Shown piece by piece: positions 22,309-39,606 of a stretch of DNA of 64,000 nucleotides. Each line of letters begins with the position of its first letter. Positions within the stretch are counted from its first letter, which is position 1. The stretch spans positions 416,001 through 480,000 of the forward strand of contig CAVSPA010000007.1 of assembly GCA_963729715.1 (NCBI GenBank), in the 5' to 3' direction. Made by a program: the position numbers and the translations under genes. The DNA comes from an uncultured delta proteobacterium. Lineage in GTDB: Bacteria; Desulfobacterota; Syntrophia; Syntrophales; UBA2185. The notes under the pieces were generated by a model, which was given only the letters and a program-made list of their open reading frames with translations, was not told the DNA's origin and searched no databases.

Positions 22309-22989
22309 TTATTTCTTTTCTGCTCTCGCTTCTTTTTCGAAATCATGAGCTCTCACATTATCATGATGTTGAAAAAATGCGGGGTAGCATTCCCGGAAGT
22401 AGGCGACAATCCTTTCATAGGGTACGTCGGTAAAAGGACCGTGATCCCTAACGTATTCCATATGCTTCTTTCCTTCCCCGTCATATGGATGAAAGAGGCT
22501 GTCATTTCTGCCATCGAAGTTGAGAGGATTTACGCCAAACTTGTCACACAGGGATAGGTTGAACGTTGGTGTAGCCTTGACCCAGCGGTCGCCGAGGAAG
22601 AGTTCCGTATAACCGTGAAAGATGAAGGTATCCGTTTTCATCAACTGCCGGAGCCTTTCCGTGGTAAGGTGGTTGCGCACATCGGCAAAGCCGAGCCGGG
22701 CGGGAATACCGGAGGCACGGGCAACAGCAACAAGCACAATTGCTTTGGCCACGCAATAACCATAGCCCTTTCCTATGATGACGCTCGCTTTGAAAGCCTC
22801 TCTTTTTTCCAAATCGATCCGGTACGGGTCATACCTGATCTTGTCTCGAACTGCATAAAAGAGGGCTATGCCTTTCTCCATTGAGGTCTTGATGCCGCCC
22901 GCGGCATCTCCGGCGAAGGCTGTGACCTCCGATGCATCACTGTCAATATAGTACGTGGGCCGGAGGTATTGTTCGTGATCATTTGCCAT
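22309..22989 (-). CDS. Transglutaminase-like family protein
   Basis: YAVRD.IRYDPY, GYCVAKA, FHGYTE, WVKATP. Confidence 0.92.
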   Translation of the reverse strand: MANDHEQYLRPTYYIDSDASEVTAFAGDAAGGIKTSMEKGIALFYAVRDKIRYDPYRIDLEKREAFKASVIIGKGYGYCVAKAIVLVAVARASGIPARLGFADVRNHLTTERLRQLMKTDTFIFHGYTELFLGDRWVKATPTFNLSLCDKFGVNPLNFDGRNDSLFHPYDGEGKKHMEYVRDHGPFTDVPYERIVAYFRECYPAFFQHHDNVRAHDFEKEARAEKK

Positions 22990-23239: not shown

Positions 23240-23719
23240 TTAATCTTCAGACCGAAGCAGGACAGAAACATGGCTGACGTCTTCCAGATCATCCCTCCAA
23301 CTCTTGTTTTCGAGGATTCTTTTCTTCTTGACAAATGTCCATAACTCATCAAGCTGGGCCTCAGTCATTTTCAGTGAATAGAGAAGATTTGACAATACGG
23401 ACTCACAATGTTCTCCCGCACGGAGGATTACGCGCTGCACAATGCCTTTATCGATTTTCAATGATCGCGCGGTCGATTGAACTCCATCACCTTCTGCCGC
23501 ATGGTGAAGAATCTGTCTGATAATATCTTCGGACAAATGCATCCTGTAAAAAGCTGTTGACGTCGATGCGGCGAAACGTTTTCCGCAGGTTCTGCAATAT
23601 AATAGTTTTCTGTTCTTATTTTTGCCGTAGTTACCGCGTACGCCAACATTACCGTTGTCCCTCAGACCGTAATCTTTACAGCCTCTGTTGGGGCAGTATA
23701 TATATTCAATTTCCAACAC
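23240..23719 (-). CDS. IS1-family InsA-like Zn-ribbon plus HTH protein lacking the DDE catalytic domain
   Basis: CPNRGC...YCRTCGKRF; HTH EGDGVQSTARSLKIDKGIV; ends shortly after QLDELWTFVKKK. GTG 23719 has GGAGG 9 nt upstream. Confidence 0.8.
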   Translation of the reverse strand: MLEIEYIYCPNRGCKDYGLRDNGNVGVRGNYGKNKNRKLLYCRTCGKRFAASTSTAFYRMHLSEDIIRQILHHAAEGDGVQSTARSLKIDKGIVQRVILRAGEHCESVLSNLLYSLKMTEAQLDELWTFVKKKRILENKSWRDDLEDVSHVSVLLRSED

Positions 23720-23772
23720 GTTGAAATACCTCCGATCAGTAGTTCTTAGTTTGTCAATTAGAAAGTTTGTCA

Positions 23773-23830
23773 ATTCTATTCGAACTCAATTATCAAAACA
23801 ATATTAAAAGATTAATAAATAATATTAAGA
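23773..23830 (-). promoter_or_regulatory. Promoter (TTGTTT-N17-TAGAAT) fused to copy 1 of the 32-bp AT-rich motif
   Basis: 23799-23830 CAATATTAAAAGATTAATAAATAATATTAAGA is 29/32 identical to 34401-34432. Confidence 0.7.
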
Positions 23831-24049
23831 ATTAATTAATTAGAAATTTGCCGCAAAATTGTATTCCGGAAATAGTGGTTTTATTGTGAGCTTTAACTTG
23901 CATCCACTATGCTATCGGTGTATATTAATTGCGCTTTTGAAGAAAATGATTAAGTCGATAATTTGTCTCATAATATCCTTCCTCGATGAATTTTCGATCT
24001 GAATCTATCTGATGGCATGATATAAATAGAAAGAAGTTAACTCAAAGGG

Positions 24050-26143
24050 ATGTATAACCATATGGAAGATAACATTCGCTGGACGAAGACACATTGCGCC
24101 AGGATGGACCATGGGGGCTGTAGCCTTCTGGTCGGCGTGAAAGATAATCAGATTGTCAGGGTGAAGGGGGATCCGGAGGGCTACCTGAGTAAGGGTTATA
24201 TATGCCCTAAGGGCGTAGCATCGCCGGATAGACTGACACACCCGGACCGTCTCAGGCATCCCCTCAAGCGGGCAGGAATGCGCGGCGAAGGCAAATGGCA
24301 GCGCATAACCTGGGAAGAGGCCTTGCAGGAGGTCGCCGGAAATCTCCTTGAGATCAAGGAAAAGCACGGTGCGAGGGCAGTTGCATTTGGCGTCGGCATG
24401 CCCAAAGGCCTTGAGCATTTTGTCCTCATTCGTCTGGCCAATCTTTTCGGATCTCCGAATGTGGTCGCTTCTCAGGATGTCTGCCACGCACCCCGTGAGA
24501 TCACGGGCATCCACACATGCGGCTTTTACCCGGTCGCAGATTTTCACCATCCGAGCAAGCTCGCCGTCCTGTGGGGAAGCAACATTACCTCCACGAATGA
24601 AGAGGGTGAAATCAACAGCATGTTCCTCGAACAGATGAAGAACGGGATGGAGTTGATCGTAATCGATCCGCGCCGGATCGACACAGTTAAGAAAGCGCGG
24701 ATGTGGCTGCAGATCAGGCCCGGCACGGACAATGCCTTGGCCCTGGGATTCCTGAATGTCATTATTTCCGAGGGTCTGTACGACAAAGAATTTGTGGAAA
24801 AATGGACTGCGGGTTTTCCCGATCTGGTGGAACATGTAAGACAATTCACGCCGGAGCAGGTCTCCACAATCACCTGGGTCGCACCCGAACTCATAAGAGA
24901 CGCCGCCCGCTGCTATGCCACGGCAAAGCCGGCAGTCATCCAATGGGGAAATCCCATAGAACACAATATTTTCACCTTCGACACCGCAAGAGCTCTTATC
25001 TGCCTCATGGCCATAACGGGAAATCTCGATGTGCCCGGTGGCAACGTAGAGGCGAAAGACCCACAGATCGTGGGGCTGGGTCCCTTTGTCCGGGCCGATC
25101 TCATGCCTGATAAGTACAAGAACATGATCAGCGCCCACCACAGCGTAATCCCGCGCCTGATGACAATTGCGCCCGCGTATTTCCGGAAGGCAGTTTTGGA
25201 AGGAATTCCCTACCCGGTGAAGGGATTTTACGCCATGTGCTGCAATCCCCTATTGACCTACGCAGACAGCCGTCAGACTTATGAGGCCCTCATGAAACTG
25301 GACTTCCTCGCCATAGCTGATATCTTCATGACCCCGACTGCGGCCCTGGCGGATATCGTTCTGCCCGCAGCCACACAGTTCGAATTTGATGATATCGGCC
25401 ATCTCGGAATCGGTCACGGTTACCTCCTGGCAAGGCCCAAGGTCGTGGAACCGCCGGAGGAGTGCTGGCCGGATATGAAGATTATGAATGAGCTGGGTAA
25501 ACGCATAAGTCCGCCGGAACTCTGGCACGACGATTACCGTATGTTCCTCGAAGACGTCGTCAAACCGGCAGGACTTACGTATGCCGAGTTTGCGGAGAGG
25601 GGATACCTGAAAGGACCGGACCGTTTCAAATCCTACGAGAAGAAAGGATTTAGGACCCCATCTGGAAAGGCCGAACTCGCCCTTAGCACAGCGGAGAAGT
25701 TTAAATTAACTTCCCTGCCGCAATACAAGGGTCTGCCGGAAGACGACGACCCCGATTATCCCCTGCTCCTCACCAGCGCCAAGAGCCGCTTCTTCCTCCA
25801 TTCGTCCTACCAATGGCTGGAAAAGCTCAGGAAACTGAGACCTCATCCGCGGCTGGAGATCCACCCGGAGACGGCACAGAAATACGGCATCAAGGAAGGT
25901 GATGAGGTTGTTATCGAAACGAAATACGGCAGGATCACCCAGATGGCCAACCTGACAGACGGCATTGATCCCCGCGTGCTATGCGCTACCCATGGATGGT
26001 GGTTCCCGGAAGGTAGGCCGGACACGCAGTACGATTGGGAAAGATCCAATTTCAACATGCTTACCTCTACGGGCAAGCTCGGCAGGGAGTACGGCACGCC
26101 CAATCTGAAGGGCCTGCCCTGCAGGATCAGCAGGAAGACCTGA
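24050..26143 (+). CDS. DMSO-reductase-family molybdo/tungsto-bisPGD oxidoreductase (acetylene hydratase-like)
   Basis: CARMDHGGC...CPKG, RLRHPLKR, WQRITWEEAL, IRPGTD, ADIVLPA, C-terminal IHPETA. No Tat signal. Confidence 0.9.
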   Translation: MYNHMEDNIRWTKTHCARMDHGGCSLLVGVKDNQIVRVKGDPEGYLSKGYICPKGVASPDRLTHPDRLRHPLKRAGMRGEGKWQRITWEEALQEVAGNLLEIKEKHGARAVAFGVGMPKGLEHFVLIRLANLFGSPNVVASQDVCHAPREITGIHTCGFYPVADFHHPSKLAVLWGSNITSTNEEGEINSMFLEQMKNGMELIVIDPRRIDTVKKARMWLQIRPGTDNALALGFLNVIISEGLYDKEFVEKWTAGFPDLVEHVRQFTPEQVSTITWVAPELIRDAARCYATAKPAVIQWGNPIEHNIFTFDTARALICLMAITGNLDVPGGNVEAKDPQIVGLGPFVRADLMPDKYKNMISAHHSVIPRLMTIAPAYFRKAVLEGIPYPVKGFYAMCCNPLLTYADSRQTYEALMKLDFLAIADIFMTPTAALADIVLPAATQFEFDDIGHLGIGHGYLLARPKVVEPPEECWPDMKIMNELGKRISPPELWHDDYRMFLEDVVKPAGLTYAEFAERGYLKGPDRFKSYEKKGFRTPSGKAELALSTAEKFKLTSLPQYKGLPEDDDPDYPLLLTSAKSRFFLHSSYQWLEKLRKLRPHPRLEIHPETAQKYGIKEGDEVVIETKYGRITQMANLTDGIDPRVLCATHGWWFPEGRPDTQYDWERSNFNMLTSTGKLGREYGTPNLKGLPCRISRKT

Positions 26144-26217
26144 GCCTCTGTTTTGCTGTGAGATGGAAAGAGAAATAGCAGTTACTTAAATCAACCTACG
26201 CAGAAAGGAGCAACGCA

Positions 26218-26508
26218 ATGATCAAGCATATAGTCTTCATGAAATTCAAGGCAGGTGTTACAGAAAAAAATATCGAGGATCTGGAGAAGGCCATGGCAAA
26301 GCTACCTGGAAGAATTCCGGAAATAAAAGAGTATCAATTCGGCCGCGATATCGTTCATTCCTCAAGGTCATACGATTTCGCTCTGATTTCCGCCTTTGAA
26401 GACCTGGAGGCACTGAAGCGTTATCAACCGCATCCCGACCACCTTCCCGTTCTCACAAAGGTGAAGGAAATATGTGAAAACATTCTGGCAGTGGATTTCA
26501 AGGTGTAA
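26218..26508 (+). CDS. Dabb-family (stress-responsive alpha/beta barrel) protein
   Basis: MIKHIVFMKFK...YQPHPDH...VDF. Confidence 0.92.
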   Translation: MIKHIVFMKFKAGVTEKNIEDLEKAMAKLPGRIPEIKEYQFGRDIVHSSRSYDFALISAFEDLEALKRYQPHPDHLPVLTKVKEICENILAVDFKV

Positions 26509-26664
26509 CTTCATCCGTAAAGTGCCAACAGCTTTTCTCGGAGGAATCACCAAATCTTCCGAATCCTTGATGTTCATGCATTATCCTCTTGTGCTGCAGT
26601 GCACATGGAAACAGATAGAAACGCATCTGCATATAAGAATCCTATCCAATCATCGGTGATTGCT

Positions 26665-27450
26665 ATGAAGGCGGCCTTTGTACAGTTCAACCCTCAATTT
26701 GGGGAAATAGAAGCAAATGTCAAGAAAGCCGTAAAGCACATCAAGAGAACTGAGGCTGAAATTATCGTTCTTCCGGAACTGTTTAATACAGGTTATCTCA
26801 TAACATCAAAGGACGAGGCATTTGACCTCGCGGAGCCGCTACCTGACGGCAAGACAACAGAAGCGTTATGTGCGGCGGCGCAGGAAAGAAAAGTTCACAT
26901 CATCGCCGGTCTGATCGAAAGGGAGGATGAGAATCTTTTCAATGCGGCCGTTGTTATATCTCCCTCGGGTTATCTGGGAAGGTACAGGAAGGTTCATCTG
27001 TTCAACGAAGAAAAACTCTGGTTTCAGCGTGGAGACCTCGGGCTTAATGTCTTTGACATAGGGATATGCAAGATAGGGGTGATGATCTGTTTTGACTGGT
27101 TCTTCCCTGAATCCATGCGCACCCTCGCACTCAAGGGAGCCGATTTGATCTGCCACAGTGCAAATCTGGTTCTCCCTTTCTGTCAGGATGCGATGAAGAC
27201 CAGATGCTTGGAAAACCGTGTTTTCGCCGTTACGGCCAACAGGACAGGCGAGGAGAACAGAAACGGAAAGAGTTGCCGCTATACAGGCAGAAGCCAGATA
27301 ACGGGACCGGATGCAAGAATTCTGTACCAGGCAGGCGCTGAAACCGAAGAGATCGGTATAGCCGAGATTGACATTGATTTGGCGCGGAACAAGAATCTGA
27401 ATCCTTACAACCATGCCCTTCTGGATAGAAGGGAAGAATTCTACAGTTGA
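26665..27450 (+). CDS. Carbon-nitrogen hydrolase (nitrilase superfamily)
   Basis: E-K-C triad in LPELFNTGY, YRKVHL, ICFDWFFPE. Confidence 0.92.
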   Translation: MKAAFVQFNPQFGEIEANVKKAVKHIKRTEAEIIVLPELFNTGYLITSKDEAFDLAEPLPDGKTTEALCAAAQERKVHIIAGLIEREDENLFNAAVVISPSGYLGRYRKVHLFNEEKLWFQRGDLGLNVFDIGICKIGVMICFDWFFPESMRTLALKGADLICHSANLVLPFCQDAMKTRCLENRVFAVTANRTGEENRNGKSCRYTGRSQITGPDARILYQAGAETEEIGIAEIDIDLARNKNLNPYNHALLDRREEFYS

Positions 27451-27528
27451 TCTGTTCCAAAGGCGAAGTTCAGTATTTCAATATTCTTGCAATACCAGCT
27501 AATGCTCTGTTCCTGAAGATGGAGAGGA

Positions 27529-28428
27529 TTAGCGTGCAAGGTGGGATACCATGGAAGGAAATTTCTGTCCCATGTAGCGTTCAAACTGCAAGCTCGCTTC
27601 GATGAGCATGTCCAGGCTTATGCCGGTCTCTATACCTGTCTCATGGAGCATATTGACGGTGTCTTCCGTGGCGATGTTTCCTCTGGCGCCAATGCTAAAA
27701 GGGCAACCACCCAGCCCTCCGAGAGACGCATCGAAGATGGAGACCCCCTCGTTGATTGCCGCCCAGACATTAGCCAGTCCCAAACCACGCGTATTGTGAA
27801 GATGAAGGGAAAGAGGCACCTTCTCCGCGACATCCTGCACACGTTTCACAAGCTTTCCAACTTGCGCTGGATTAGCCATGCCCGATGTATCGGCAAGACA
27901 GATTTCGTCCGGTTCTTTTTTCAGGAGACCCTTCACCAGCTTTATGACTTTATCTTGAGGAACATTTCCCTCGTAGGCACATCCGAAGGCGTTCATCACT
28001 CCCGCTCGCACTTCCATGCCCGCACCGTGCGCCTTCCCCATGAGCAGCCCCGCTTCCCTCATCGCCTCCGCAATGGACGCATTGCTATTTTTCCTGCTGT
28101 GCGTTTCGCTTGCGGACACATAAATACCTACCTGCTGCACCCCGCACCGCATAGCTCTCCCCAGACCCCTCTCATTTAATACAAGGGCCGCATATACGGC
28201 GCCTTTCCTTTGACTGACCATGCTCCAGAGTTTCTCTGCATCCGCCATCTGCGGCACCAGGCGCGGATTGACAAAGGATGACACCTCGATGCGCCGTACT
28301 CCGCAACCGGTCAATGCATTGACGAGCTTTACCTTGTGCTCGGTGGATACGAGCTTCTTCTCGTTCTGGATGCCATCCCTAAGGACGACTTCGTGGATTT
28401 CAATCTTTCGCGGGAGGCGGCTTTGCAT
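27529..28428 (-). CDS. Hydroxymethylglutaryl-CoA lyase, canonical
   Basis: EVVLRDGIQNE, LADTSG, HLHNTRG, GLGGCPF, GNIATED. Confidence 0.9.
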   Translation of the reverse strand: MQSRLPRKIEIHEVVLRDGIQNEKKLVSTEHKVKLVNALTGCGVRRIEVSSFVNPRLVPQMADAEKLWSMVSQRKGAVYAALVLNERGLGRAMRCGVQQVGIYVSASETHSRKNSNASIAEAMREAGLLMGKAHGAGMEVRAGVMNAFGCAYEGNVPQDKVIKLVKGLLKKEPDEICLADTSGMANPAQVGKLVKRVQDVAEKVPLSLHLHNTRGLGLANVWAAINEGVSIFDASLGGLGGCPFSIGARGNIATEDTVNMLHETGIETGISLDMLIEASLQFERYMGQKFPSMVSHLAR

Positions 28429-28445
28429 AGGCTTGTTCGGTATGC

Positions 28446-28480
28446 AAAAAGAAACAGGGGGAGAATAACTCCTCCCCCTG
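28446..28480 (-). terminator. Terminator between the two HMGL-family genes
   Basis: CAGGGGGAG/CTCCCCCTG stem followed by TTTCTTTTT on the minus strand. Confidence 0.7.
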
Positions 28481-28495
28481 CGCGAGACAATGATT

Positions 28496-29674
28496 CTATT
28501 TCTTCCAGGCTGTGGGTCCCCATTTTTCACCTAGAACAGCTTTGGGGGACCATTCGGGCGGCACCAACTGGCCGGGTTTTTCACCCACTTTCTGGATGAG
28601 TTTGGCAAGACCGGGACGGGCGTGTTCCGGATGCCCTTCTTTCAATGTCCGGCCGTTGATGACGGCCTCGGAACGGAGCCTCCGGCCGATCGTCTTCTCC
28701 ATCTTTTTTCCGAGCGACAGGACACGGTCCACATTGTACCCGTGCTCGATACCCAGCTCATCGATCATCACCAGGAGATCCTCCATGGTAATGAGACCCA
28801 CAAACCGAGGATCGTAATAGTAATCGCCCGTTCCTCTTACGGGACAGTCATCGAGGAAATTTGCCGGCTGTCCGCCCAGACCACCCAAGGTTCCTTCAAA
28901 GCGGGTGATTCCGGCCTGAAGGGCCGCAAGGATCGAGGCGGAAGCGACACGCTTCGTTTCATGGAGATGGCAGAGATGAGCATCAGGATTCGGCATGGCG
29001 TCGAGCACCATGGAGAAATAACGGTAGACCTGGGCCGCGGACGCGGAGCCATCATGGTCAGCATGCTCGATGTCATGGGCGCCGATAGATAAGAAGCGCT
29101 TCGTAAACTCCACGGCATCCTCCAGCTTCGTGGCGCCGGTAATGGGGCTCCCCCAAATGGTGCTCACGGTGCCGCACATTTTCATGCCATGGTCGGCGGC
29201 TTTCTTGATACAGCGCTCTGCCTCTTTCCAGTACTGGGTCAGCGTCGTTCCTGAATTGGCAAAATGGTGTTCCGGATCGGTGGAAACCATCATCAGTATG
29301 CGGTCCGGACCTATCCCTTTTTTCCTGAGCTCGATGGCCGTATCGACAGCGGGTTCGCGGATCGTCACAGCAGTCATGACAAGCTCATCGTATTTGACCC
29401 CCGCCCTCTCGCAGCGTTTCTTGAACGCATCACCCCTGAGGGCTGTAAGGACCTGCTCTGCATCCCTGAACTGAGGAATGCCAGCCGGGTTTCCCAGGTT
29501 GGTAACCTCAATCTCCTTTGCACCCGCCAAGATCATTTCCTGGGCGTAAAAGATCTTGGCATTAGTAGATATGAATTTTTCTTCGTGCTGGAAACCATCG
29601 CGCACGGTTATGTCTCCGATGGTTACCTTCTTTGGCATTTTGGGAAAGATTTTCCAATAATCATATTCCGTCAT
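28496..29674 (-). CDS. HMGL-like (DRE-TIM metallolyase; often annotated pyruvate carboxyltransferase) protein
   Basis: DITVRDGFQHEE, HLHET, GLGGQP. Confidence 0.85.
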   Translation of the reverse strand: MTEYDYWKIFPKMPKKVTIGDITVRDGFQHEEKFISTNAKIFYAQEMILAGAKEIEVTNLGNPAGIPQFRDAEQVLTALRGDAFKKRCERAGVKYDELVMTAVTIREPAVDTAIELRKKGIGPDRILMMVSTDPEHHFANSGTTLTQYWKEAERCIKKAADHGMKMCGTVSTIWGSPITGATKLEDAVEFTKRFLSIGAHDIEHADHDGSASAAQVYRYFSMVLDAMPNPDAHLCHLHETKRVASASILAALQAGITRFEGTLGGLGGQPANFLDDCPVRGTGDYYYDPRFVGLITMEDLLVMIDELGIEHGYNVDRVLSLGKKMEKTIGRRLRSEAVINGRTLKEGHPEHARPGLAKLIQKVGEKPGQLVPPEWSPKAVLGEKWGPTAWKK

Positions 29675-29740
29675 AGAACAGTAATGACCTCCTCAATTTT
29701 ATTATTTATTAAGTTCAACGTATCGCCGGGTGAAAGAGTG

Positions 29741-30541
29741 TTATTCCCCTTTGAATACGGGTTTACGTTTCTCGGCAAAGGCCGCCAGTGCCTCCAGTCG
29801 ATCCTTCGTCGGGATGGTAACCTCATAAGCCTTGGACTCAAGCGGGAGCGCCACTCCGAGGCTCGCCTCGGAGCCGTAGTTGATGGCGAACTTCGCCTGG
29901 GCAACGCCGATGGGGCCGTTCTTGGCGATCTCTCTTGCCAGTTCGAGCGCCGCTTCCATGAGCTTATCGGGTTCCACAACCCTGCTGACAAGACCGATCT
30001 GTAGAGCCGTCTCCGCATTTATTCTTCTCGCCGTAAAGACCAACTCCTTGGCTTTTGCCACACCAACAATCCTAGTCAGTCTTTGAGTTCCGCCTGCGCC
30101 GGGGATAATCGCCAGAGAGGTTTCGGTTAATCCCATGAGGACGTTGGACGAACAGATACGGATGTCCGAGGCAAGGGCGAGTTCCGTGCCGCCGCCAAAG
30201 GCAAATCCGTTTATGGCTGCAATCACGGGGACACGGACCTGCTCTACGGCCGTGAAAGTGTTGCGTATCGTGAAAATGAAGCGGCGAACCTGGTCGTCTG
30301 ACAGCGTCCGTCTTTCCTTCAGGTCTGCGCCTGTAGAGAAGGACCACTTCTTGGGATCGTCTCCCGCCTTTGCGCCGGTAATGATGATGCAGCGGAGACC
30401 CATGTCAAAATTTGCTTCCCTTACGGTGTCGGCCAGTACGGCCAATAGATCAAAGTTAAAACAGTTCATAGCCTCAGGACGATTCAGCGTGAGAATAACG
30501 ATGCCCTCATCAGTCCTTTCTTTTAAAAGTATATCTGCCAT
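29741..30541 (-). CDS. Enoyl-CoA hydratase, probable methylglutaconyl-CoA hydratase (LiuC-like)
   Basis: LNRPEAMN, GADLKER, GGGTELAL, ETSLAIIPGAGGTQRL; operon context. Confidence 0.85.
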   Translation of the reverse strand: MADILLKERTDEGIVILTLNRPEAMNCFNFDLLAVLADTVREANFDMGLRCIIITGAKAGDDPKKWSFSTGADLKERRTLSDDQVRRFIFTIRNTFTAVEQVRVPVIAAINGFAFGGGTELALASDIRICSSNVLMGLTETSLAIIPGAGGTQRLTRIVGVAKAKELVFTARRINAETALQIGLVSRVVEPDKLMEAALELAREIAKNGPIGVAQAKFAINYGSEASLGVALPLESKAYEVTIPTKDRLEALAAFAEKRKPVFKGE

Positions 30542-30577
30542 AGGAATACTCCTCCTTATTTCACTCTTCAAGCGGGA

Positions 30578-32233
30578 TTAGACCTTCAGATCACCCCAGT
30601 CTGACTTGTCTATAGGTACGCGATAGCAAAGTTCCAATGACCTGCCTAGCTTTTCTCGCGCTTCGCTGTAAGTGATTACACCGTCGTGGAACAAGAGCGA
30701 ACCTGTCAGGAAGGGATGCCCTTCGTTATCATAACGATCTATCATCATCTGGCGGAATTTGGCCATTTCTTCCTCGTTAACCGTTTGTCCTCTGTCGACG
30801 ATATTCTTCCTGCGGACGCTCTCCACGATGAAACCCGCTGTGCGGCCGGACATAACCGTAGTGCGGCCTCTCATATTTGTAAAGCAGAAGACCGGCCTGA
30901 AGGCCCTCCCGCACATACCATAGTTTGCCGCTCCGTGATCTGGACCAATGACGTACTGGATTTTCGGAACGTTCAGCACGCTGCACGTACGGACCATGTC
31001 GGACCCGTATTTCCCGATGCCTCCCCATTCCTCGGCCTTTCCGACCATGTAGCCAGGAGAGCCCTGGAGAAAGATAACCGGCAGCTTCGAGTTTCCGCAA
31101 CGGATCATCCACTCCGTCGCTTTTCTTGCCGCTTCAATATATATGACGCCTGTCCCATTGGAAGCGATGACGCCTACGGGCATGCCTTTCAGCCACATCT
31201 TACCGGCAACGACACTTTCACCACGGTTGAGGCCGTATGTCGGTTTGTATTCATGGAAATAGCTGTCATCAGCAATACACTTTAGGGTGTCCCTGATGTT
31301 GATTGCGTTATAGGTATTCATGGGGGCGGAGCGCATCATGTCCCTGTAGTCATATCTTGGTTCCAGGGTTTGTACGCGGTCGCAGTGAATCGACTGGCTT
31401 GGTTCAAACTCAATGATGTCCCGCAGCTTCTGGATACCCTCTGCCTGGGATGTCACGAAATGGTCGCAACCGCCGGAGTGCTGGGTGTGAACATAGGCAC
31501 CTCCCAGGTCTTCCATGGACACGGTCTCGCCAATGGCGGACTTCACCATGGGGGGGCCTGCCAGAAAGGCAAACGCCAGCTTTTCTATCATGATTGACTC
31601 GGAAGCGAGATAAACGATGTAGGCGCCGCCCGCCGTGTTTCCGCCGGTTGACAGAGTGTATTGTTTGATTCCCATGGCGGACATGCGGCACATGTTGTAG
31701 AACATGCTGCCAAAGTGCCCGTCGTCAGCGAAACAGCCCAACTGCAGGGGAAGGTTGATGCCACCTGAGTCGGCAATGTATACGCAGGGTAATCGGAGGC
31801 GTTCGGCAATCGCTTGGGCCCTCATATGCTTCTTTAGGGTGATCGGGAAATAGGTTCCCGCCGCATAGCGGTTTTCATTGGCAAAGATCATGCAATCCTT
31901 TCCATGAATGACGCCTACGCCGGTGACCAGTCCGCCGCCGGGGATATTACCCCTTTTCTCTGATTCGTAGATCTCTCCCCCGTAGAGTTTTATCTGTCCG
32001 ATGTTGTAGCCGGCATCGAGGCCAAGCTCAAAGAACTCCGTACTAGGATCGATCAACATCGAAATGAGTTCTCTCATCGGCTTCTTGCCCTGTTTGGCAA
32101 GACGCTTGAGCTGCTCCTCACCGCCGATGTTGTATGCCTCTTCACGGTGAGTCAAGAGGATAGCGTCCTGTTCCTCCCAATGTTTCAGATTGTTGTCGTC
32201 TCCTGCCATACCTTGTTTCATTTCTTCCGCCAT
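30578..32233 (-). CDS. Acyl-CoA carboxylase carboxyltransferase subunit (methylcrotonyl-CoA carboxylase beta-like)
   Basis: KKHMRAQ, DSGGINLP, TAGGAY, GPPMVK, DLGGA, GAANYGMCGRAF. Confidence 0.9.
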   Translation of the reverse strand: MAEEMKQGMAGDDNNLKHWEEQDAILLTHREEAYNIGGEEQLKRLAKQGKKPMRELISMLIDPSTEFFELGLDAGYNIGQIKLYGGEIYESEKRGNIPGGGLVTGVGVIHGKDCMIFANENRYAAGTYFPITLKKHMRAQAIAERLRLPCVYIADSGGINLPLQLGCFADDGHFGSMFYNMCRMSAMGIKQYTLSTGGNTAGGAYIVYLASESIMIEKLAFAFLAGPPMVKSAIGETVSMEDLGGAYVHTQHSGGCDHFVTSQAEGIQKLRDIIEFEPSQSIHCDRVQTLEPRYDYRDMMRSAPMNTYNAINIRDTLKCIADDSYFHEYKPTYGLNRGESVVAGKMWLKGMPVGVIASNGTGVIYIEAARKATEWMIRCGNSKLPVIFLQGSPGYMVGKAEEWGGIGKYGSDMVRTCSVLNVPKIQYVIGPDHGAANYGMCGRAFRPVFCFTNMRGRTTVMSGRTAGFIVESVRRKNIVDRGQTVNEEEMAKFRQMMIDRYDNEGHPFLTGSLLFHDGVITYSEAREKLGRSLELCYRVPIDKSDWGDLKV

Positions 32234-32298
32234 TTATAATCCTCCTAGATACTCCCGGATTGAATGTCACCTTGGGAGCTTTAATACTTAAAAGAAAA

Positions 32299-33069
32299 CT
32301 ACCTTCCGATAACGTAGCGATACGGGTCTATCTGATCCCTCAGGATGGACAGTTCGCCTGCTGTTGGAGGTTTGTTCTCCACGATCTTTTTCGCCTTCAA
32401 AAGTTCGAACCCACAATTGGCCTGAACATCCTTTTCGGAATAACCCGGATTGACCCCTATAATCCGCATCCTCTTTGATTCCGGTTCAAAATCCATAACC
32501 GCCATATTGGTAATAATCTTGTATGGACCAGCCCCCCGCGGAAGGCCTGATTTCTCCCTCGAATCGCCGCCCGTTAGCCAGCCCGGCGTTGTAATAAATT
32601 GACATTTCTCGGCAAATCTCTTGGAATCCTGGGGCGTCATAACGAGCATTCTCCAACAAAATGAAGCGAGGTCATTGGCACCGCCACTCCCCGGGAATCG
32701 AACCTTCGGTTTCTGATGGTCAGGACCGATTCTCGTGGAATTCAAATTTCCGTACATATCAATCTGTGCACCACCGAGGAAGGTGTAATCGATCATGCCA
32801 CGACAACACGTTTCCATAATTTCACACATGCCGCTTGCCATCAAGGCCTTCCAAGTAGTTCTGGAATCTCCCACGGATATGGGCATTTCAGGGATCAAGG
32901 GTGCCGCCCCGCCGGCCTCAAAAAGGATTACCAGGTTGGGTGAGTGGGCCTTCTGCGCAAGCATTGCCGCCGCATTGGGAGCTCCAGTTCCGACTACAAT
33001 AGAAGCCCCGTCTTCCAGTTCTCTTGCAGCGGTGCATATCATTAGTTCCATGGTATTATAATCAGCCAT
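32299..33069 (-). CDS. Family I CoA-transferase subunit B (GctB-like)
   Basis: VGTG, LFEAG (catalytic Glu region), FLGGAQIDMYGNLNST, GSGGAND. Confidence 0.9.
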   Translation of the reverse strand: MADYNTMELMICTAARELEDGASIVVGTGAPNAAAMLAQKAHSPNLVILFEAGGAAPLIPEMPISVGDSRTTWKALMASGMCEIMETCCRGMIDYTFLGGAQIDMYGNLNSTRIGPDHQKPKVRFPGSGGANDLASFCWRMLVMTPQDSKRFAEKCQFITTPGWLTGGDSREKSGLPRGAGPYKIITNMAVMDFEPESKRMRIIGVNPGYSEKDVQANCGFELLKAKKIVENKPPTAGELSILRDQIDPYRYVIGR

Positions 33070-33086
33070 ACCGTTTAGCCTCCTCT

Positions 33087-34079
33087 CTAATCTCTCGCTT
33101 TGACAAACATGAATTCTTTGTCCCTGAGTTTCAGCAGTTTGTGTATGCCGCCGTTCTTCTCGACATATTCAAAGTGATCCTTGCAGCTGTAAATATTCTT
33201 TTCGATGAATTTCTTGAACTCGACCGGATCCTCTTCCGTTTTCATCCATTCTCTTATATGTTCCTCATCGGAGAAATATTCTGCATACATATTTCCGGGA
33301 TAACTGCCATAAGGGACCTCACATACGGCATCTACGCACCAGTAAGGAATTACTGTATAACTCGGATCTCTGCGTATCTCATCATTGGAAATCAGCCTTT
33401 CACAGGTAATAATCAGACGCTTGGACGCCCTTGCCACATCGAAATCGGAAACGGTGATGCCTCTCGCACGGCAATTGCCATAGATATCCGCCTCATGAAC
33501 ATGAATCGCCGACACATCCGGATAGAGGGCTGGCATGGCTGCATACTTTGTTCCCGTAAATGGGCACTCGATGATTTTGGCGCCGCTGTATTTGAATGTG
33601 TCCGTTCCCATAATATTTCTCGATGGGTAGAAGGAAACACCTGCAGCTGCAGCCTTGAAGCGTACGGAGAGTGAATAGTTGGTCCATTCACTCACCTGGA
33701 CCTTGCCGCTTTCCATATAACGCCTCGCGTTGGGGGACAGACCGCGGGCCTCAAGACCGACAATATAGGCAACATCCAGCTTGTCGAAAACCTCACCGGC
33801 GCACAGAATCTGAAAATCATGGGTGGATGTATGGCCTGCAAAACCCATATTCTTCCTGCCTTGCCTCACGATTTCATGTGCAACTGCTATAGGCACCCTG
33901 TTTGCCCCGAAGCCGCCGAGCGTCAGATAATCGCCGTCATGGACGAATTTTTCCACGGCTTCTTTTACAGACATCACCTTGGACTCCAGCTTACGGTTCT
34001 TCGTGCGGAAGAATGCACGCGCCTTGTCCGCATCAGGGTCCGTAAAGATTTTGCCAATTCCTTGATCGATCACTTCCAC
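33087..34079 (-). CDS. Family I CoA-transferase subunit A (GctA-like)
   Basis: EAVEKFVHDGD, AAAAGVSF, IHVHEADIYGN, PYGSYP. GTG start behind AAGGAGG. Confidence 0.9.
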   Translation of the reverse strand: MEVIDQGIGKIFTDPDADKARAFFRTKNRKLESKVMSVKEAVEKFVHDGDYLTLGGFGANRVPIAVAHEIVRQGRKNMGFAGHTSTHDFQILCAGEVFDKLDVAYIVGLEARGLSPNARRYMESGKVQVSEWTNYSLSVRFKAAAAGVSFYPSRNIMGTDTFKYSGAKIIECPFTGTKYAAMPALYPDVSAIHVHEADIYGNCRARGITVSDFDVARASKRLIITCERLISNDEIRRDPSYTVIPYWCVDAVCEVPYGSYPGNMYAEYFSDEEHIREWMKTEEDPVEFKKFIEKNIYSCKDHFEYVEKNGGIHKLLKLRDKEFMFVKARD

Positions 34080-34399
34080 CGGACTATACCTCCTTTTCAT
34101 TATTCGCAGCGCCCACCCATATGAATAGTTAGGGAGGATCGCCCTGTTAAAGATGTATGAACTGCATCCGCCGAAATCAGGCCGATTAGACTACCGCACT
34201 GTCAGCGTTACTTAATTAATCAAGCAATAACCTTTGCTTAAGGTCACACTGGTTTCTTTTATTCTACTGATCAACGAGATAAAGGTGCTGAAAAAATGGA
34301 TATATTTCAAATGAGACGCTCTATCAGTTTTCTTCCTTCTCTTATAAGAGCAATCAGTAAATTTTTATCTGCCTGTATTGTACCAAACAGAGAGGGAAA

Positions 34400-34746
34400 G
34401 CAATATTAAAAGGTTTATAAATAATATTTAGATAAAATTAATTTTAGATAAGTGACAATCAAGGCAAAAGATCCCCATTGCGCTGATTCAATTTTCGCAA
34501 GAAAGTCAACGGTATTATCTCTAAAGCCGGTCACGAAAGTTTGGTCCGATTGAAATCTGACTCTGTTGAGGTAAAAGTTTTTTCTTATTGCGTAAATAAA
34601 ATTTGCTTTCTTCGAGGAATAACAGTTGTAATAGATAAAGTCTCTTTTCCCCTTTAATAATGGAGGCGTTATTTGAGACAGCGAATCCATTTGATTTTTA
34701 ATTATTAGTTTTTTCTAAATATTATTTATAAACCTTTTAATATTGC
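34400..34746. repeat. Perfect 33-bp inverted repeat (281-bp spacer), each arm abutting an outward-facing promoter-like sequence
   Basis: 34400-34432 GCAATATTAAAAGGTTTATAAATAATATTTAGA is the reverse complement of 34714-34746. Minus strand: TTGCTT-N15-TACAAT with TG extension. Plus strand: TTGCCT-N17-TACAAG. Confidence 0.9.
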
Positions 34747-35230
34747 CTTTCGTAATTTTTTTCCATACAAGATTGTGCATGATACTTCCCTCCACAGGGA
34801 TGCGTGTGGCATGCGCCCGTCAGCAGCATATAGGACGCAGTCTTGTCGTTTCATGCTAAGATTCTTTATCGCTTATGCTTGCAAAGTCAGCAACTATATG
34901 AGATATGCCTTGATGTCGGCAATAGACGGAAATTGAGAACATCTCAAAGGGTTCATATTGGTGACAAATAGAAAATCCTGTTTCTGCTTATTATCAAATC
35001 ACTTACGCCTTAACGTTTCTGCTATGAACAAACGTTCTATGGGCTGTGCCAAATACGGAGCAGGCCCGCGGCATATCTTCTACCCGCTGCAAGATTAGGC
35101 TACACCTGGTAAGTTTTTTTTAGATAAATTTATATGGATAAGTAATATTATAAATCTGTATACCGCTTAAGAGGGGCTGAATTAATTCGGCTGAATGTCA
35201 AAACTTAATTACCTTAAGGAGGGAGTCAAG

Positions 35231-36745
35231 ATGACAACACCGGTTCAACAAAAGATTCGTGACAAGAAGAGAACAGCACAGCAGATTTTGGATATGGTCA
35301 AGTCCGGAAACTGGATTCAGCCAGGTTCGGTCGGAGGTGATTCAACGGAATGTATGATGGAGCTGGCAAAAAGGATCGGCCCAAAATTGAAGGACATTGA
35401 GCTTTGGAATTATGCTAATTTTTTCCCTCATCCCGAATTTCAGGCGACTGACCCCATGCAGCAATATCACTGCTTCCACGAGTATTTCTTCTTTCCATGG
35501 AACCGCAAGGCAAGAGATACCAACAACGTAACGGACTGGGCGCACTGGGGATGGGCAATGGGCATGTGGTTCGCCCATTATCGTTTCACTAATGCAATAA
35601 AGGAAAAGCGCGGGTTTGACTGGTGGTGGAATGCGGCTACGGCCTTTGATGAGCACGGCTTTGCCAACTTCTCTTATGGCACGAACAACGCCAATATCTT
35701 CAGCCAGTGCGCAAAGAAGACCGTAATAGAAGTTCGTTCAGACTATCCCTGGGCCGAAGGCGGCCGCTTTAACACCATTAATATTGATGACATCGACTTC
35801 TGGGTCGAAGTGGACTGCGAGAAATACAAGTGGCCACAGATCAATGAAAAGGCCATCAAGGCAAAACCAGAGGAAGAGGCGATCGCAAAACATGTCATGA
35901 CCATTATGAAGGATAGAGATATAATCCAGCTCGGTATCGGTTCTCTTCCCTCCGCGTGTGTAAGCGCTATGACCGACGCGGGACTCAAGGACCTCGGCAT
36001 CCACACGGAGATGCTCAATGCCGGTCTTATCAAGCTGATCGAATCCGGTCAGGTGACAAACAAATACAAGACCCTCCCCGCCGACCGCGGCAAGAGCGTG
36101 TGGACATTCGCATTCCCCGTTGATGTGAAGTGGTACTATGACACTATCCACAGGAACCAAGAGCTTGCGGCTTATGACATCAGTTACACGAATAACCTGC
36201 ATAATCTCACAAGGCTCGACAACATGATCGCTATTGACAACTGCGTGGCTGTCGACCTTCTCGGACAGCAGTGTTCCGGCTTTTATGAAAAACGGCCGAT
36301 CTCTAGCTCCGGCGGCTACTTCCATTTTGTCTCCTTCTGCGCCCAGTCTAGAGGCGGACGCGGCGTCGCCTCCATGACGGCACGAAGCAAGCACGGCACC
36401 TCGAGGATTGTTCCCTTCCTGCCTGAAGGATCATCAGTGGATGTCCCGGCTCAGTTAACAAATTACGTTTGTACTGAGTACGGCATCGTGAACCTGCGCG
36501 GTCTGTCCGGTTATGAAAGGGCCGCAGCGCTGATCTCCATTGCCCACCCCGATGACCGTGAGATGCTGGAAAAAGCGGCGAAAGAGAACGGCCTCCTTGC
36601 CCCGAAATTCCCCGTATCCATGATGCCGGTTGAGGGTAAGACCAGACGGTATCCGTCCTACTCAGACAGACGGAACTACAAAATGGCCTTACACGGTGAG
36701 ACATCAGGATTCGATTGGGAGCAGGGTTATCAATCAGCAAAATAA
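35231..36745 (+). CDS. Acetyl-CoA hydrolase/transferase family CoA-transferase (4-hydroxybutyrate/butyrate CoA-transferase-like)
   Basis: QLGIGSLP, LGIHTEM, SGG..HF, TEYGIVNLRG, ALISIAHPDDRE. Confidence 0.9.
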   Translation: MTTPVQQKIRDKKRTAQQILDMVKSGNWIQPGSVGGDSTECMMELAKRIGPKLKDIELWNYANFFPHPEFQATDPMQQYHCFHEYFFFPWNRKARDTNNVTDWAHWGWAMGMWFAHYRFTNAIKEKRGFDWWWNAATAFDEHGFANFSYGTNNANIFSQCAKKTVIEVRSDYPWAEGGRFNTINIDDIDFWVEVDCEKYKWPQINEKAIKAKPEEEAIAKHVMTIMKDRDIIQLGIGSLPSACVSAMTDAGLKDLGIHTEMLNAGLIKLIESGQVTNKYKTLPADRGKSVWTFAFPVDVKWYYDTIHRNQELAAYDISYTNNLHNLTRLDNMIAIDNCVAVDLLGQQCSGFYEKRPISSSGGYFHFVSFCAQSRGGRGVASMTARSKHGTSRIVPFLPEGSSVDVPAQLTNYVCTEYGIVNLRGLSGYERAAALISIAHPDDREMLEKAAKENGLLAPKFPVSMMPVEGKTRRYPSYSDRRNYKMALHGETSGFDWEQGYQSAK

Positions 36746-36764
36746 GTTGTTTCGCGTTATACGA

Positions 36765-36797
36765 CTTGAGAAGCCCGGATTATCCGGGCTTTTCGAG
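36765..36797 (+). terminator. Hairpin or terminator after the CoA-transferase gene
   Basis: AAGCCCGGAT/ATCCGGGCTT followed by TT. Confidence 0.65.
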
Positions 36798-36887
36798 TTA
36801 AGTTGCCAAAGCCAGTCAGTTTAAACTTCCATGCGCGGCTTCGACAGCTGATTAAATAAATCTCAATTTATCAGGAGGTATTTGTGT

Positions 36888-38078
36888 ATGGCGTTAGATT
36901 TTAATTTTACAGATGAACAAAAGATGTTGGAGGACAGCGTTTACAAGTGGGGACTTAGCTGGCTGGACCCACAGATGGAGCATCTATATGAAGTCGATGA
37001 GATGCCACCGACTCTTTTCAAGGAGCTGGGGAACCTGGGTGTGAACGGAATCGTCTTTGAGGAAAAGTATGGCGGTACGGCTCTGGGATATGTGGAAACG
37101 CTCCTCGTTTATGAGACGATCGCGCGTGTGAGTAACGCCCTGTCCATGACTGTCGGCGCAAGCCAGACCCTCTGCTTCGACAACTTCCGGCGCAACGCAT
37201 CGGAAAAACAGAAGATGTATGTCCTTCCCAAGTCCTGCACCGGCGAGTGGGTCGGATGCCTTGGAATCACCGAACCAAACGCCGGCTCCGACGCGATGAG
37301 CATGGCGACAAAGGCGGAGAAAAAGGGAGACAAGTACATCATCAACGGCAGCAAAATCTTCATCACCAACGGTCCGGTAGCGGACTTCATGACATTTTAC
37401 GCGAAGACAGATCCGGCCGCGGGCCCGAAGGGTATTTCCGCGTTCTTCTTCGAGTTCGACAAGGTCAAGGGTGTTACGAGGGAGAAGATTAAGAAATGGG
37501 GTATGAGGACATCCCCCACGGCTTTGATCACCTTTGAAGATGTCGAACTGCCGGCAGAGAACCTCATCGGCGGTTTGAACAAAGGCGTCTCCGTTCTCAC
37601 GAGCGGCCTCTGCACGGAAAGAATCACCCTCTCCGGCTGCACTCTCGGCAGCCAGAGAAGCTGTCTTGAGCTTAGCTTGAAGTATGCGAAGGAAAGGGTA
37701 CAGTTCGGAAAGCCCATCATCAGCTATCAGGCCATACAGGAAAAGCTCGCAAATATGTACACGGGTTACCTGGCCTCCAAGTGGATGGCATACAGCGCGG
37801 CCGCATATTGCGACACCTTGGCAAATAAGGTTGGCGGAAAGGGCACGGACCTCGACCGTATGGCAGCCGCGGCTCTTCTGTTCTGCGGCGAGATGGGAAC
37901 AAAGATCGGCCTCGACGCCATCCAGGTCTTCGGCGGTTACGGCTACTGCACGGAATACGCCGTTACGAGGCATTTCCTGGATCAGAAACTCTGGGAGATC
38001 GGCGCTGGTACGTCCGAGATCAGAAGGATGATCATTGCAAGAGAGCTCATGAGGGACGACTTCAAGAGCGGCAAATAA
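36888..38078 (+). CDS. Acyl-CoA dehydrogenase, isovaleryl-CoA dehydrogenase-like
   Basis: ITEPNAGSDA, NGSKIFITNGP, KWGMRTSPT, GL..ER, QVFGGYGY, LWEIGAGTSEIRR (IVD-type C-terminus). Confidence 0.9.
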   Translation: MALDFNFTDEQKMLEDSVYKWGLSWLDPQMEHLYEVDEMPPTLFKELGNLGVNGIVFEEKYGGTALGYVETLLVYETIARVSNALSMTVGASQTLCFDNFRRNASEKQKMYVLPKSCTGEWVGCLGITEPNAGSDAMSMATKAEKKGDKYIINGSKIFITNGPVADFMTFYAKTDPAAGPKGISAFFFEFDKVKGVTREKIKKWGMRTSPTALITFEDVELPAENLIGGLNKGVSVLTSGLCTERITLSGCTLGSQRSCLELSLKYAKERVQFGKPIISYQAIQEKLANMYTGYLASKWMAYSAAAYCDTLANKVGGKGTDLDRMAAAALLFCGEMGTKIGLDAIQVFGGYGYCTEYAVTRHFLDQKLWEIGAGTSEIRRMIIARELMRDDFKSGK

Positions 38079-38187: not shown

Positions 38188-39606
38188 TCACTTCATCGGG
38201 GGGACGAAGGGAATCCATTGCGCAAAGAGCCAGCAGAGGAAGAAGACGAGCGGTATGTGTACAAACATCTGGAGCACTGAATAGCCCACAAGGTCGCGGG
38301 CCTTCATATGGAGCAGCCCCAAAAGCGGCAGCATCCAGAACGGGTTCAGTAGGTTCGGCAGGGCCTCGGCTGCATTGTAGATCACCACCACCCATCCAAG
38401 ATTCACCTGGTGCTGTATTGCGGCCTGCAGGACATAAGGCGCCTCGATGACCCACTTGCTTCCCCCTGAGGGAATAAAAACACCCAGGATGGACGAATAA
38501 GCGGCCACCAGAAGCGGGTAGGTTCCCTGGGTCGTGATACTGTAAAAGAGGTCGGCCAACCACTTGTTGATCCCCGTACCGACGATCATCCCGAAGATCA
38601 CGGCGTAGAAGGGGAACTGGATCAGAACGCCGCCTGTTGCGGGAACCGACTGCGCCACGGCCTTGAGGAACCGTTTCGGGCGCCAGTGCAGAATCATGCC
38701 GACAGTGATGAAAATCAAGTTATAGTTATTGAGGTCCAGAGCCGCGATGGGTCCCCTGGGATCACTGGCGAAGAGGTGTATCAGATACCAACAAAGAAGA
38801 CCTGCCACGAGGATGATCATCAGAGGGCTGTATTCAAGCCACTCTCCCGGTTTCTGGCGCGTCTCGATGCTCGTATCGATCTCGTCAAATTTCAGGTTGA
38901 AGTAATCTACTGTCTTGGCTCGCTCGGGTTTCGGAGCCGAGAAGTAGGCAATGGGTACCGAAACCGCAATGAGAGCGACTATCATCCAGAAATTCTGCCA
39001 GATGAAAAGTGTCTGAGTCAGGGGGATTAGACCGCTGATCTCAAAGAGTTTAGGCGGAATGGCCCCCTTTGTGGCCATCATGAGGGGCGCCGAGGAGGAA
39101 AGACCGAGGGCCCAGATGGCGCCCAGTCCCAGGTAGGCTGCGGCCCCTGCCGCCCGGTAGTCCATTCCCTTAACCCTTCTCGTCAATTCGCGGACCAAAA
39201 GGCCGCTGAAGATGAGGCTTAACCCCCAGGAGATCAGGGAAGTCACCAGAGACAAGAAGGCAACAAAGGCGACGGCTCCCCTTCCCGTCTTGGGGATTCC
39301 GGCCACCTTCTGGATCACCCAGTAAACGGCGGGAGTAGAGGCAAGCACATATCCGCCGATAATAATGAACGCCATCTGCATGGTAAAGGGTATCAGGACC
39401 CAGAATGCCTTGCCGCCCTCGGTCGCGAGCTTTCCGGGACTCTCACCGATGAGAAGACCAAAGACAAAAACGATAACAATGCCCACAAGGGCAAATACCC
39501 ACGCGTCGGGAAACCATTTTTCACTCCACGCCGCCAGCCCCAGGCCGAAGCGCTCAAGAACCCCTTCTTGCGGCTTGCCAGCGTCCGAATTCTTCTTTTC
39601 TGCCAT
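38188..39606 (-). CDS. AtoE-family short-chain fatty acid transporter
   Basis: KWFPDAWVFA, FTMQMA, GLSSSAPL, QFPFYA, FIPSGGSKW, PFWMLP; many TM helices. Confidence 0.9.
   Translation of the reverse strand: MAEKKNSDAGKPQEGVLERFGLGLAAWSEKWFPDAWVFALVGIVIVFVFGLLIGESPGKLATEGGKAFWVLIPFTMQMAFIIIGGYVLASTPAVYWVIQKVAGIPKTGRGAVAFVAFLSLVTSLISWGLSLIFSGLLVRELTRRVKGMDYRAAGAAAYLGLGAIWALGLSSSAPLMMATKGAIPPKLFEISGLIPLTQTLFIWQNFWMIVALIAVSVPIAYFSAPKPERAKTVDYFNLKFDEIDTSIETRQKPGEWLEYSPLMIILVAGLLCWYLIHLFASDPRGPIAALDLNNYNLIFITVGMILHWRPKRFLKAVAQSVPATGGVLIQFPFYAVIFGMIVGTGINKWLADLFYSITTQGTYPLLVAAYSSILGVFIPSGGSKWVIEAPYVLQAAIQHQVNLGWVVVIYNAAEALPNLLNPFWMLPLLGLLHMKARDLVGYSVLQMFVHIPLVFFLCWLFAQWIPFVPPMK

Follow-up and report, generated by a model that had tools for sequence, protein, structure and literature searches.

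A putative PAS-LuxR regulon for acyl-CoA catabolism in Syntrophales, with a domesticated IS1 orfA gene as its possible second tier

Introduction

Eukaryotes offer well-known cases of transcription factors that derive from transposases. For bacteria, our literature search, which reached few subscription papers and no supplements, returned no description of a free-standing domesticated InsA of IS1; 10.64898/2026.08.24.746577, in its accessible part, deals with plant transposases. In Escherichia coli, InsA binds the IS1 ends and represses its own promoter, and InsA supplied in trans nearly abolishes IS1 transposition (accessible text of PMC12428005).

The locus studied here raises the question whether such a protein can become a host regulator. 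The window, a stretch of 64,000 nucleotides from an uncultured delta proteobacterium of the Syntrophales (GTDB UBA2185; contig CAVSPA010000007.1, positions 416,001 to 480,000), carries a gene for an InsA-like protein and two catabolic operons, and one and the same site precedes all three. A first-pass annotation had proposed that the InsA-like protein binds this site, autoregulates and controls the operons, with an unrelated regulator encoded elsewhere as the alternative. Which protein binds the site, and what has become of the transposase gene?

Results

A repeated 46-bp site precedes five presumed weak promoters

The 32-bp motif reported for the window was confirmed to the base at 23799-23830 (+), 34401-34432 (+) and 34714-34745 (-), and 100 shuffles of the window yielded no copy. 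The 29/32 identity given for the copies also holds, as copies 2 and 3 are identical and copy 1 differs from them at three of the 32 bases. Within the source genome (G000, 3.76 Mb) five copies with at most four mismatches were found, including two outside the window at C5:329033 and C10:80835, while the next best match has nine mismatches. Comparison of 74 distinct site contexts revealed that the site is larger than 32 bp: the conserved stretch measures about 46 bp and reaches about 18 bp past the AATATT pair on the promoter-distal side. At its other end stands an invariant TTG that points towards the gene; behind it come a spacer rich in pyrimidines and a -10 region rich in A. A genome scan with a 46-bp position weight matrix, a check that the first-pass annotation had called for, gave the five sites 55-60 bits, whereas the best score anywhere else was -3, some 58 bits lower.

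Copy 1 of the putative operator (23799..23844, minus strand) ends on the TTG of a -35 box, 79 bp before the InsA-like start. Copy 2 (34401..34446, minus strand) faces the leftward operon and copy 3 (34700..34745, plus strand) the rightward one. The sequence shows all that had been named for the three copies: a pair of AATATT boxes at a distance of 21 bp, the TTG at the end, the spacers and the -10 words. The promoters built from these fared differently, with none of the three called by a strict sigma-70 scan, and they are therefore weak, non-consensus promoters. Among them is the presumed sigma-70 promoter of the InsA-like gene, TTGTTT-17-TAGAAT (23773..23801, minus strand), which is recognized by sequence and lies below the scan threshold.

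The possibility that copies 2 and 3 are the terminal repeats of a MITE or bound an invertible segment was rejected, with the span between them varying from 162 to 393 bp at a locus that is always the same, and with no flanking duplication in any of the 13 pairs examined. An Rfam search of the window gave no match.

The site faces catabolic operons

The leftward operon (27529..34100, minus strand) encodes two CoA-transferase subunits, a carboxyltransferase, an enoyl-CoA hydratase and two HMGL-like proteins. In the genomes examined, the two HMGL-like genes stand in tandem at its end (27529-29674 in the window), and either one is a candidate HMG-CoA lyase. The rightward operon (35195..38078, plus strand) comprises genes for an acetyl-CoA hydrolase/transferase and an acyl-CoA dehydrogenase, and a short-chain fatty acid transporter gene (38188..39606, minus strand) is convergent on it. 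The Pfam families suggest an isovalerate-type pathway, and we label both operons accordingly. Outside the window, the C5 site precedes an acetyl-CoA synthetase-ETF-Fe/S operon and the C10 site an operon for a membrane protein, a CoA-transferase, an acyl-CoA dehydrogenase and a thiolase. Contigs of relatives from one RNA run (word share 0.07), which are no measure of transcription, its start sites or its level, cover parts of the InsA-like gene and of the operons.

Apart from the regulon, the source genome holds four copies of a leader-like element of about 190 bp (C4:693600-693800, C7:295600-295800, C2:5100-5300 and C10:109600-109800) just before unrelated genes. Each copy ends in a GC hairpin, in three cases with a T run. 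An Rfam search gave no match; the copies may represent a small mobile unit or an RNA element that has yet to be described.

The site is more widespread than the InsA-like gene

We compared 22 genomes of the family, 11 of them from the genus of the source genome (g1) and 11 from outside it; kin genomes of this sort are not independent samples. The motif was found in 19 of the 22, compared with zero for a reversed-pattern control. All 11 genomes of g1 contain the InsA-like gene (87-95% identity), and it was found in none of the other 11; a search of 301 genomes of the order brought matches in just three more, at 40-46%. Eight of the 11 family genomes in which the gene was not found nevertheless carry the motif, often with 0-1 mismatches. 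The first-pass annotation had itself named a motif conserved in genomes lacking the gene as evidence against its model, and within the family this is what we found; binding of the InsA-like protein to the 32-bp site is left unsupported, and the distribution already largely refutes it. The three motif-free genomes are weak controls, because in two of them (G001, G015) the LuxR gene described below runs off the contig before the helix-turn-helix (HTH) and the third (G018) is 82% complete.

The second part of that model, an IS-derived site co-opted for the operons, found no support either. The parent IS is represented by L101 and L102, two IS-type relatives whose -1 frame encodes InsB (in one of them interrupted by a stop); their ends begin with GGT and end in TTGACA, which is carried at both ends. 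The motif bears no likeness to these ends and tracks a different gene instead.

A PAS-LuxR regulator tracks the site

About 20 bp before the C10 site ends a gene (G000:C10:77908-80814) for a protein of 968 aa with about six PAS domains and a GerE/LuxR HTH. Its orthologue (at least 86% identity over the last 133 aa) occurs in the same 19 family genomes that bear the motif and lies upstream of a site in each of them, mostly directly; the exceptions are a TetR gene between gene and site in G020 and G021 and an inserted element in G009. This insertion (L151:3904-4668 on G009:C77) is transposase-like, lies on the opposite strand and parts the PAS-LuxR gene from the site by about 900 bp. The TetR gene, which adjoins the site in G019, G020 and G021, was dismissed as a candidate, its best match in the source genome being 38%. 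Profile searches for AraC (PF12833) and LytTR (PF04397) gave zero matches in the source genome, and operators of the AraC/XylS or LytTR kind with a 21-bp period were set aside.

The association extends beyond the family. Four motif matches were detected in 279 genomes of other families, three of which sit 15-16 bp behind the stop codon of a PAS-LuxR gene; the fourth (G292) lies across coding sequence, misses the terminal G and was treated as chance. A search with the HTH returned 19 matches in 15 genomes from eight other Syntrophales families. Scored within 300 bp of the stop with a matrix built from family sites only, 13 of these 19 relatives reach at least 0, with the site ending at +42/+43 behind ten and at +37 behind three, compared with a background of 2 in 2755 ORFs of the source genome. 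The remaining six score below 0, yet keep the ATTG end. The closest HTHs outside the family (82-85%) have the best sites, at 42-44 bits, and the score drops with HTH identity across families. A paralogue at 48% scores -61. Taken together, the site tracks this regulator across at least nine families of Syntrophales, and the alternative offered by the first-pass annotation, an unrelated regulator encoded elsewhere, is now the better supported one, with G000:C10:77908-80814 as the candidate. Judged by sequence comparison, this PAS-LuxR protein very probably binds the 46-bp site. The weak -35 boxes and the abutting site suggest that it acts there by activation, which we hold to be distinctly more probable than repression.

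In several of these other families (L156-L176) the first bases of the operator often coincide with the PAS-LuxR stop codon, and gene and site both lie upstream of one gene, which, from its N-terminus, we take to encode an acetyl-CoA hydrolase/transferase. Directly behind the stop of a distant PAS-LuxR paralogue in the source genome (46% in the HTH region) stands an AT-rich stretch ending in CAATATTG (G000:C9:91293-91345), which resembles a decayed operator.

Fifteen family genomes encode a second LuxR paralogue whose recognition helix is almost identical (75-83% identity); it was not found in four motif-bearing ones; in the three genomes examined no site lies behind it. Its representative in the source genome (287 aa, locus C3:228137-231984) has no putative operator behind it, and the genes directly downstream are presumably for phosphate acyltransferases and a butyrate kinase. 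This paralogue could be a binder or co-binder of the 46-bp site.

The InsA-like gene is a complete orfA that has lost its mobility

The InsA-like gene (23240..23719, minus strand) encodes a 159-aa IS1-family orfA product with a C4 zinc ribbon and an HTH, and without InsB. Its start is most likely GTG 23719 rather than TTG 23773, because the GGAGG ribosome-binding site noted before (23729..23733, minus strand) indeed lies 9 nt upstream of that GTG and all 11 genus copies begin there. A transglutaminase-like gene (22309..22989, minus strand) follows 250 bp downstream and therefore leaves no room for InsB; on the other side, a molybdopterin oxidoreductase gene (24050..26143, plus strand) is divergent and is a conserved neighbour in the genus. 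The nearest relatives outside the clade, some of them named IS1 family transposase, have 140-168 aa and 58-69% identity, and 159 aa is therefore a natural orfA length and no truncation. The NCBIfam model for IS1 transposase matches residues 31-141 (E 5e-11, below the full-length cut-off), and a Pfam search of the protein gave no match. All four invariant zinc cysteines are kept, and the predicted structure (pLDDT 80.8) retains the strands, an HTH-like helix set and the long helix; Foldseek returned nothing for this model at E<=0.001 and weak HTH matches only.

The origin from an IS1-family transposase stood up to closer analysis, as an orfA without InsB kept by selection across g1. At the KKK end the A run is only 4 nt long, and a stop ends the -1 frame after no more than about 15 codons, in line with the earlier observation that no slippery run remains. 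Across all 11 genus copies the A run measures 2-5 nt, broken by differing synonymous codons, and the -1 frame stops, whereas L101 and L102 have an A7 run followed by InsB. An InsB query against the 22 family genomes found no close match, with a single match of 29-32% in one genome; G000:C16:16404-17237 holds a remote IS1-family ORF that encodes 277 aa in a single frame and matches the queries at 25-32%. The IS end pattern (up to five mismatches) was found near none of the 11 InsA-like loci, while the controls L101 and L102 were positive. In all 11 genomes of g1 the gene occupies one syntenic locus with the putative operator, and insertions are not scattered. One extra InsA-only copy each is present in G011 (L098 on C11) and G012 (L104/L100 on C81 and C22); these copies are intact, lie in new neighbourhoods and keep the leader without the putative operator.

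The gene does not evolve neutrally, which settles another check proposed earlier. Nei-Gojobori counts over 45 pairs of ten syntenic copies (G012, split over contigs, was left out) gave dN 0.042, dS 0.617 and a ratio of 0.067, with the lowest dN/dS, 0.042, in the HTH region; two neighbour genes gave 0.068 (eight genomes) and 0.172 (nine genomes). By these sequence criteria the InsA-like gene is domesticated: the mobility parts are lost and an orthologous locus is fixed under purifying selection.

The recognition helix has been altered as well. The 18 InsA-like sequences form one clade (FastTree support 1.0, stem 0.58). Ninety-five positions are at least 90% conserved in 113 IS-type relatives, which were taken as IS orfA products from their sequence, with the DNA context seen for L101 and L102. 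Fourteen of these positions are switched in the InsA-like clade, seven of 16 inside the HTH compared with seven of 79 elsewhere (Fisher p=0.002). The seven HTH switches, V78D, R81Q, A82S, L86S, D92G, T93I and N95Q, are themselves fixed in the clade.

If the protein has a new target, its own leader offers a candidate: two AATTGACA direct repeats (23752..23775, minus strand) lie over the presumed transcription start as a possible autoregulatory site, and one or two TTGAC words occur there in 13 of 13 InsA-like copies. Given the TTGACA in the parent IS ends, autorepression at these words is our guess. A comparative search for a second conserved site found none, and a 7-mer footprint search for genus-specific words common to the promoters yielded AT-rich noise only.

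Sister genera have an XRE gene where g1 has the InsA-like gene

Five genomes, those of g3 and g5 and one of g6, have a gene for a 104-aa HTH_3 (XRE) protein behind the fifth site. The carboxyltransferase orthologue of the isovalerate-type operon (at least 89% identity) is present in 16 of the 22 family genomes, and these are the 11 with the InsA-like gene and the five with the XRE gene, never both; the remaining six have neither. Between the putative operator and the InsA start there are 77-89 bp in the ten other genomes of g1, compared with 79 bp in the window. A quick RpoB tree, read without the G025 row because that sequence was translated in the wrong frame, recovered g1 as one clade and places the site and the LuxR gene at the base of the family; the branching order of g1, g3, g5 and g6 is not resolved in it, so that the gene contents may reflect a replacement of XRE by InsA, which we consider likely, or a separate gain.

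Discussion

Taken together, these results favour, with some reserve, a PAS-LuxR-activated regulon for acyl-CoA catabolism in which an IS1 orfA serves as a second-tier DNA-binding protein. Sequence comparison provides the site, the synteny, the co-occurrence, the selection, the loss of mobility and the helix change, and from these we infer binding and activation by the LuxR protein. In this model, a signal read by the PAS domains would switch the LuxR protein on, which would bind the 46 bp, probably with two or more dimers, overlap the weak -35 box and recruit polymerase at five weak promoters. The predicted targets are the C10 transporter/CoA-transferase/acyl-CoA dehydrogenase/thiolase operon, the C5 acetyl-CoA synthetase-ETF operon, the two isovalerate-type operons and the gene of a small DNA-binding protein. 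By analogy with an isovalerate cluster (accessible text of PMC5109826), the output would serve the use of short or branched fatty acids, from uptake and CoA activation to oxidation and electron transfer. The fifth transcript would deliver the small DNA-binding protein, which is the IS1 orfA product in g1 and an XRE protein in three sister genera. For the former, an IS1-family element lost InsB, its ends and the slip site, and the recognition residues of its HTH were altered. The ancestral role of orfA is repression from a site at its own promoter, as the available part of PMC12428005 describes for InsA. In the second tier the InsA-like protein most likely acts as a regulator, probably by repression from a new site, and may autoregulate through the AATTGACA repeats. 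That it is a DNA-binding regulator at all appears somewhat more likely than not. In the complete scenario, a free-standing IS1 orfA was captured behind an existing host operator, changed its recognition helix and took the second-tier place of an unrelated XRE regulator in a feed-forward circuit that is headed by the PAS-LuxR protein and serves branched-chain fatty-acid catabolism. This scenario is tentative, and we place it slightly below even.

Who binds the site is the point on which the original model and ours part. Two points speak for control of gene and operons by the InsA-like protein: all 11 syntenic copies have the site at 77-89 bp from the gene, and E. coli InsA represses its own promoter (PMC12428005, accessible part). 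The presence of the site in eight of the 11 family genomes that gave no match to the gene, related sites behind PAS-LuxR genes in other families and the missing likeness to the parent IS ends leave this model hardly any credence. Another protein, either the second LuxR paralogue or a nucleoid protein, for instance IHF, might bind instead, in which case the adjacency of the PAS-LuxR gene would reflect shared locus ancestry. The paralogue shares the recognition helix, the site is long and AT-rich, and we take its proximal half to resemble the IHF consensus. We nevertheless regard this as improbable, since the paralogue was not found in four motif-bearing genomes, the best scores lie behind the closest HTH relatives and fall with HTH identity across families, and there are only five sites per genome, with the next best place about 58 bits lower; furthermore, the C of the IHF consensus falls on the most variable position of the site.

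Within the LuxR regulon, the role of the InsA-like protein allows for more than one reading. Instead of giving it a new specificity, the helix changes could have cost the protein its DNA binding, and it could be retained because it acts non-specifically in the nucleoid, binds zinc or serves a protein partner: the switches fall on classic contact positions, including the loss of Arg81, Asp92 and Thr93, the zinc cysteines and the long helix are kept, and the search for a second target site found none. However, the new helix residues are fixed in the clade, the HTH has the lowest dN/dS (0.042) and the alternating gene encodes a plain XRE HTH, which makes such a role unlikely. It might also persist as a trans-acting repressor of the parent IS1-family elements, with the operator as a captured promoter. 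This would agree with the near abolition of IS1 transposition by InsA in trans in E. coli (accessible part of PMC12428005), with the TTGACA at both ends of the related IS and in the leader of the gene, and with a search in the genus that found no close InsB. Its chances seem slim, as the recognition helix departs from the IS-type relatives at near-invariant positions, sister genera without the InsA-like gene are also without the IS, and the exact alternation with the XRE gene is left unexplained. The second-tier regulator stays our preferred reading.

If it is correct, this would be a stand-alone bacterial transcription factor born from the repressor of an insertion sequence, with a before-and-after comparison in sister genera. 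Controls for such a comparison are at hand in the IS-type relatives at 58-69% identity, the seven defined helix changes and the sister genera with XRE behind the same operator. In addition, a PAS-LuxR subfamily spread through the Syntrophales gains a putative operator and a five-promoter regulon, and the analysis marks which operons of uncultured syntrophs are putatively co-regulated for acyl-CoA catabolism. A search by titles, with the reach given above, found no description of a Syntrophales LuxR regulon, of this operator or of the subfamily. The regulon as such belongs to the known PAS-LuxR type, whereas a helix-switched, free-standing InsA that alternates with XRE would be a new form of transposase domestication.

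In comparison with known systems, the isovalerate cluster of Desulfococcus multivorans comprises the same steps, acyl-CoA activation, dehydrogenase, carboxylase, hydratase and HMG-CoA lyase, together with a transcriptional regulator (accessible part of PMC5109826). In contrast to that cluster, CoA transferases replace the synthetase here, the candidate regulator lies on another contig and the substrate is deduced from the gene families. With InsA of IS1 and the IS1-family orfA products, the InsA-like protein shares the zinc ribbon and the HTH, is 58-69% identical to products of 149-168 aa and ends where a natural orfA ends. It differs from them in having no InsB, no IS ends and no A7 slip run, and in occupying a single syntenic locus under host selection, with a switched recognition helix and a putative host operator in its promoter. 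The PAS-LuxR activators PimM, PteF and CfaR of Streptomyces resemble the candidate regulator in PAS sensing and in the C-terminal GerE/LuxR HTH, and their 16-bp site lies, like the one found here, in the -35 region of the promoters that they control (accessible text of PMC9774167). While the PimM-type site is a GC-rich palindrome of 16 bp, the one described here is AT-rich, 46 bp long and has a partly asymmetric core. Finally, the regulators predicted here have about six PAS domains and 700-1090 aa, and unlike those of PimM, PteF and CfaR their putative targets are catabolic acyl-CoA operons in a syntroph.
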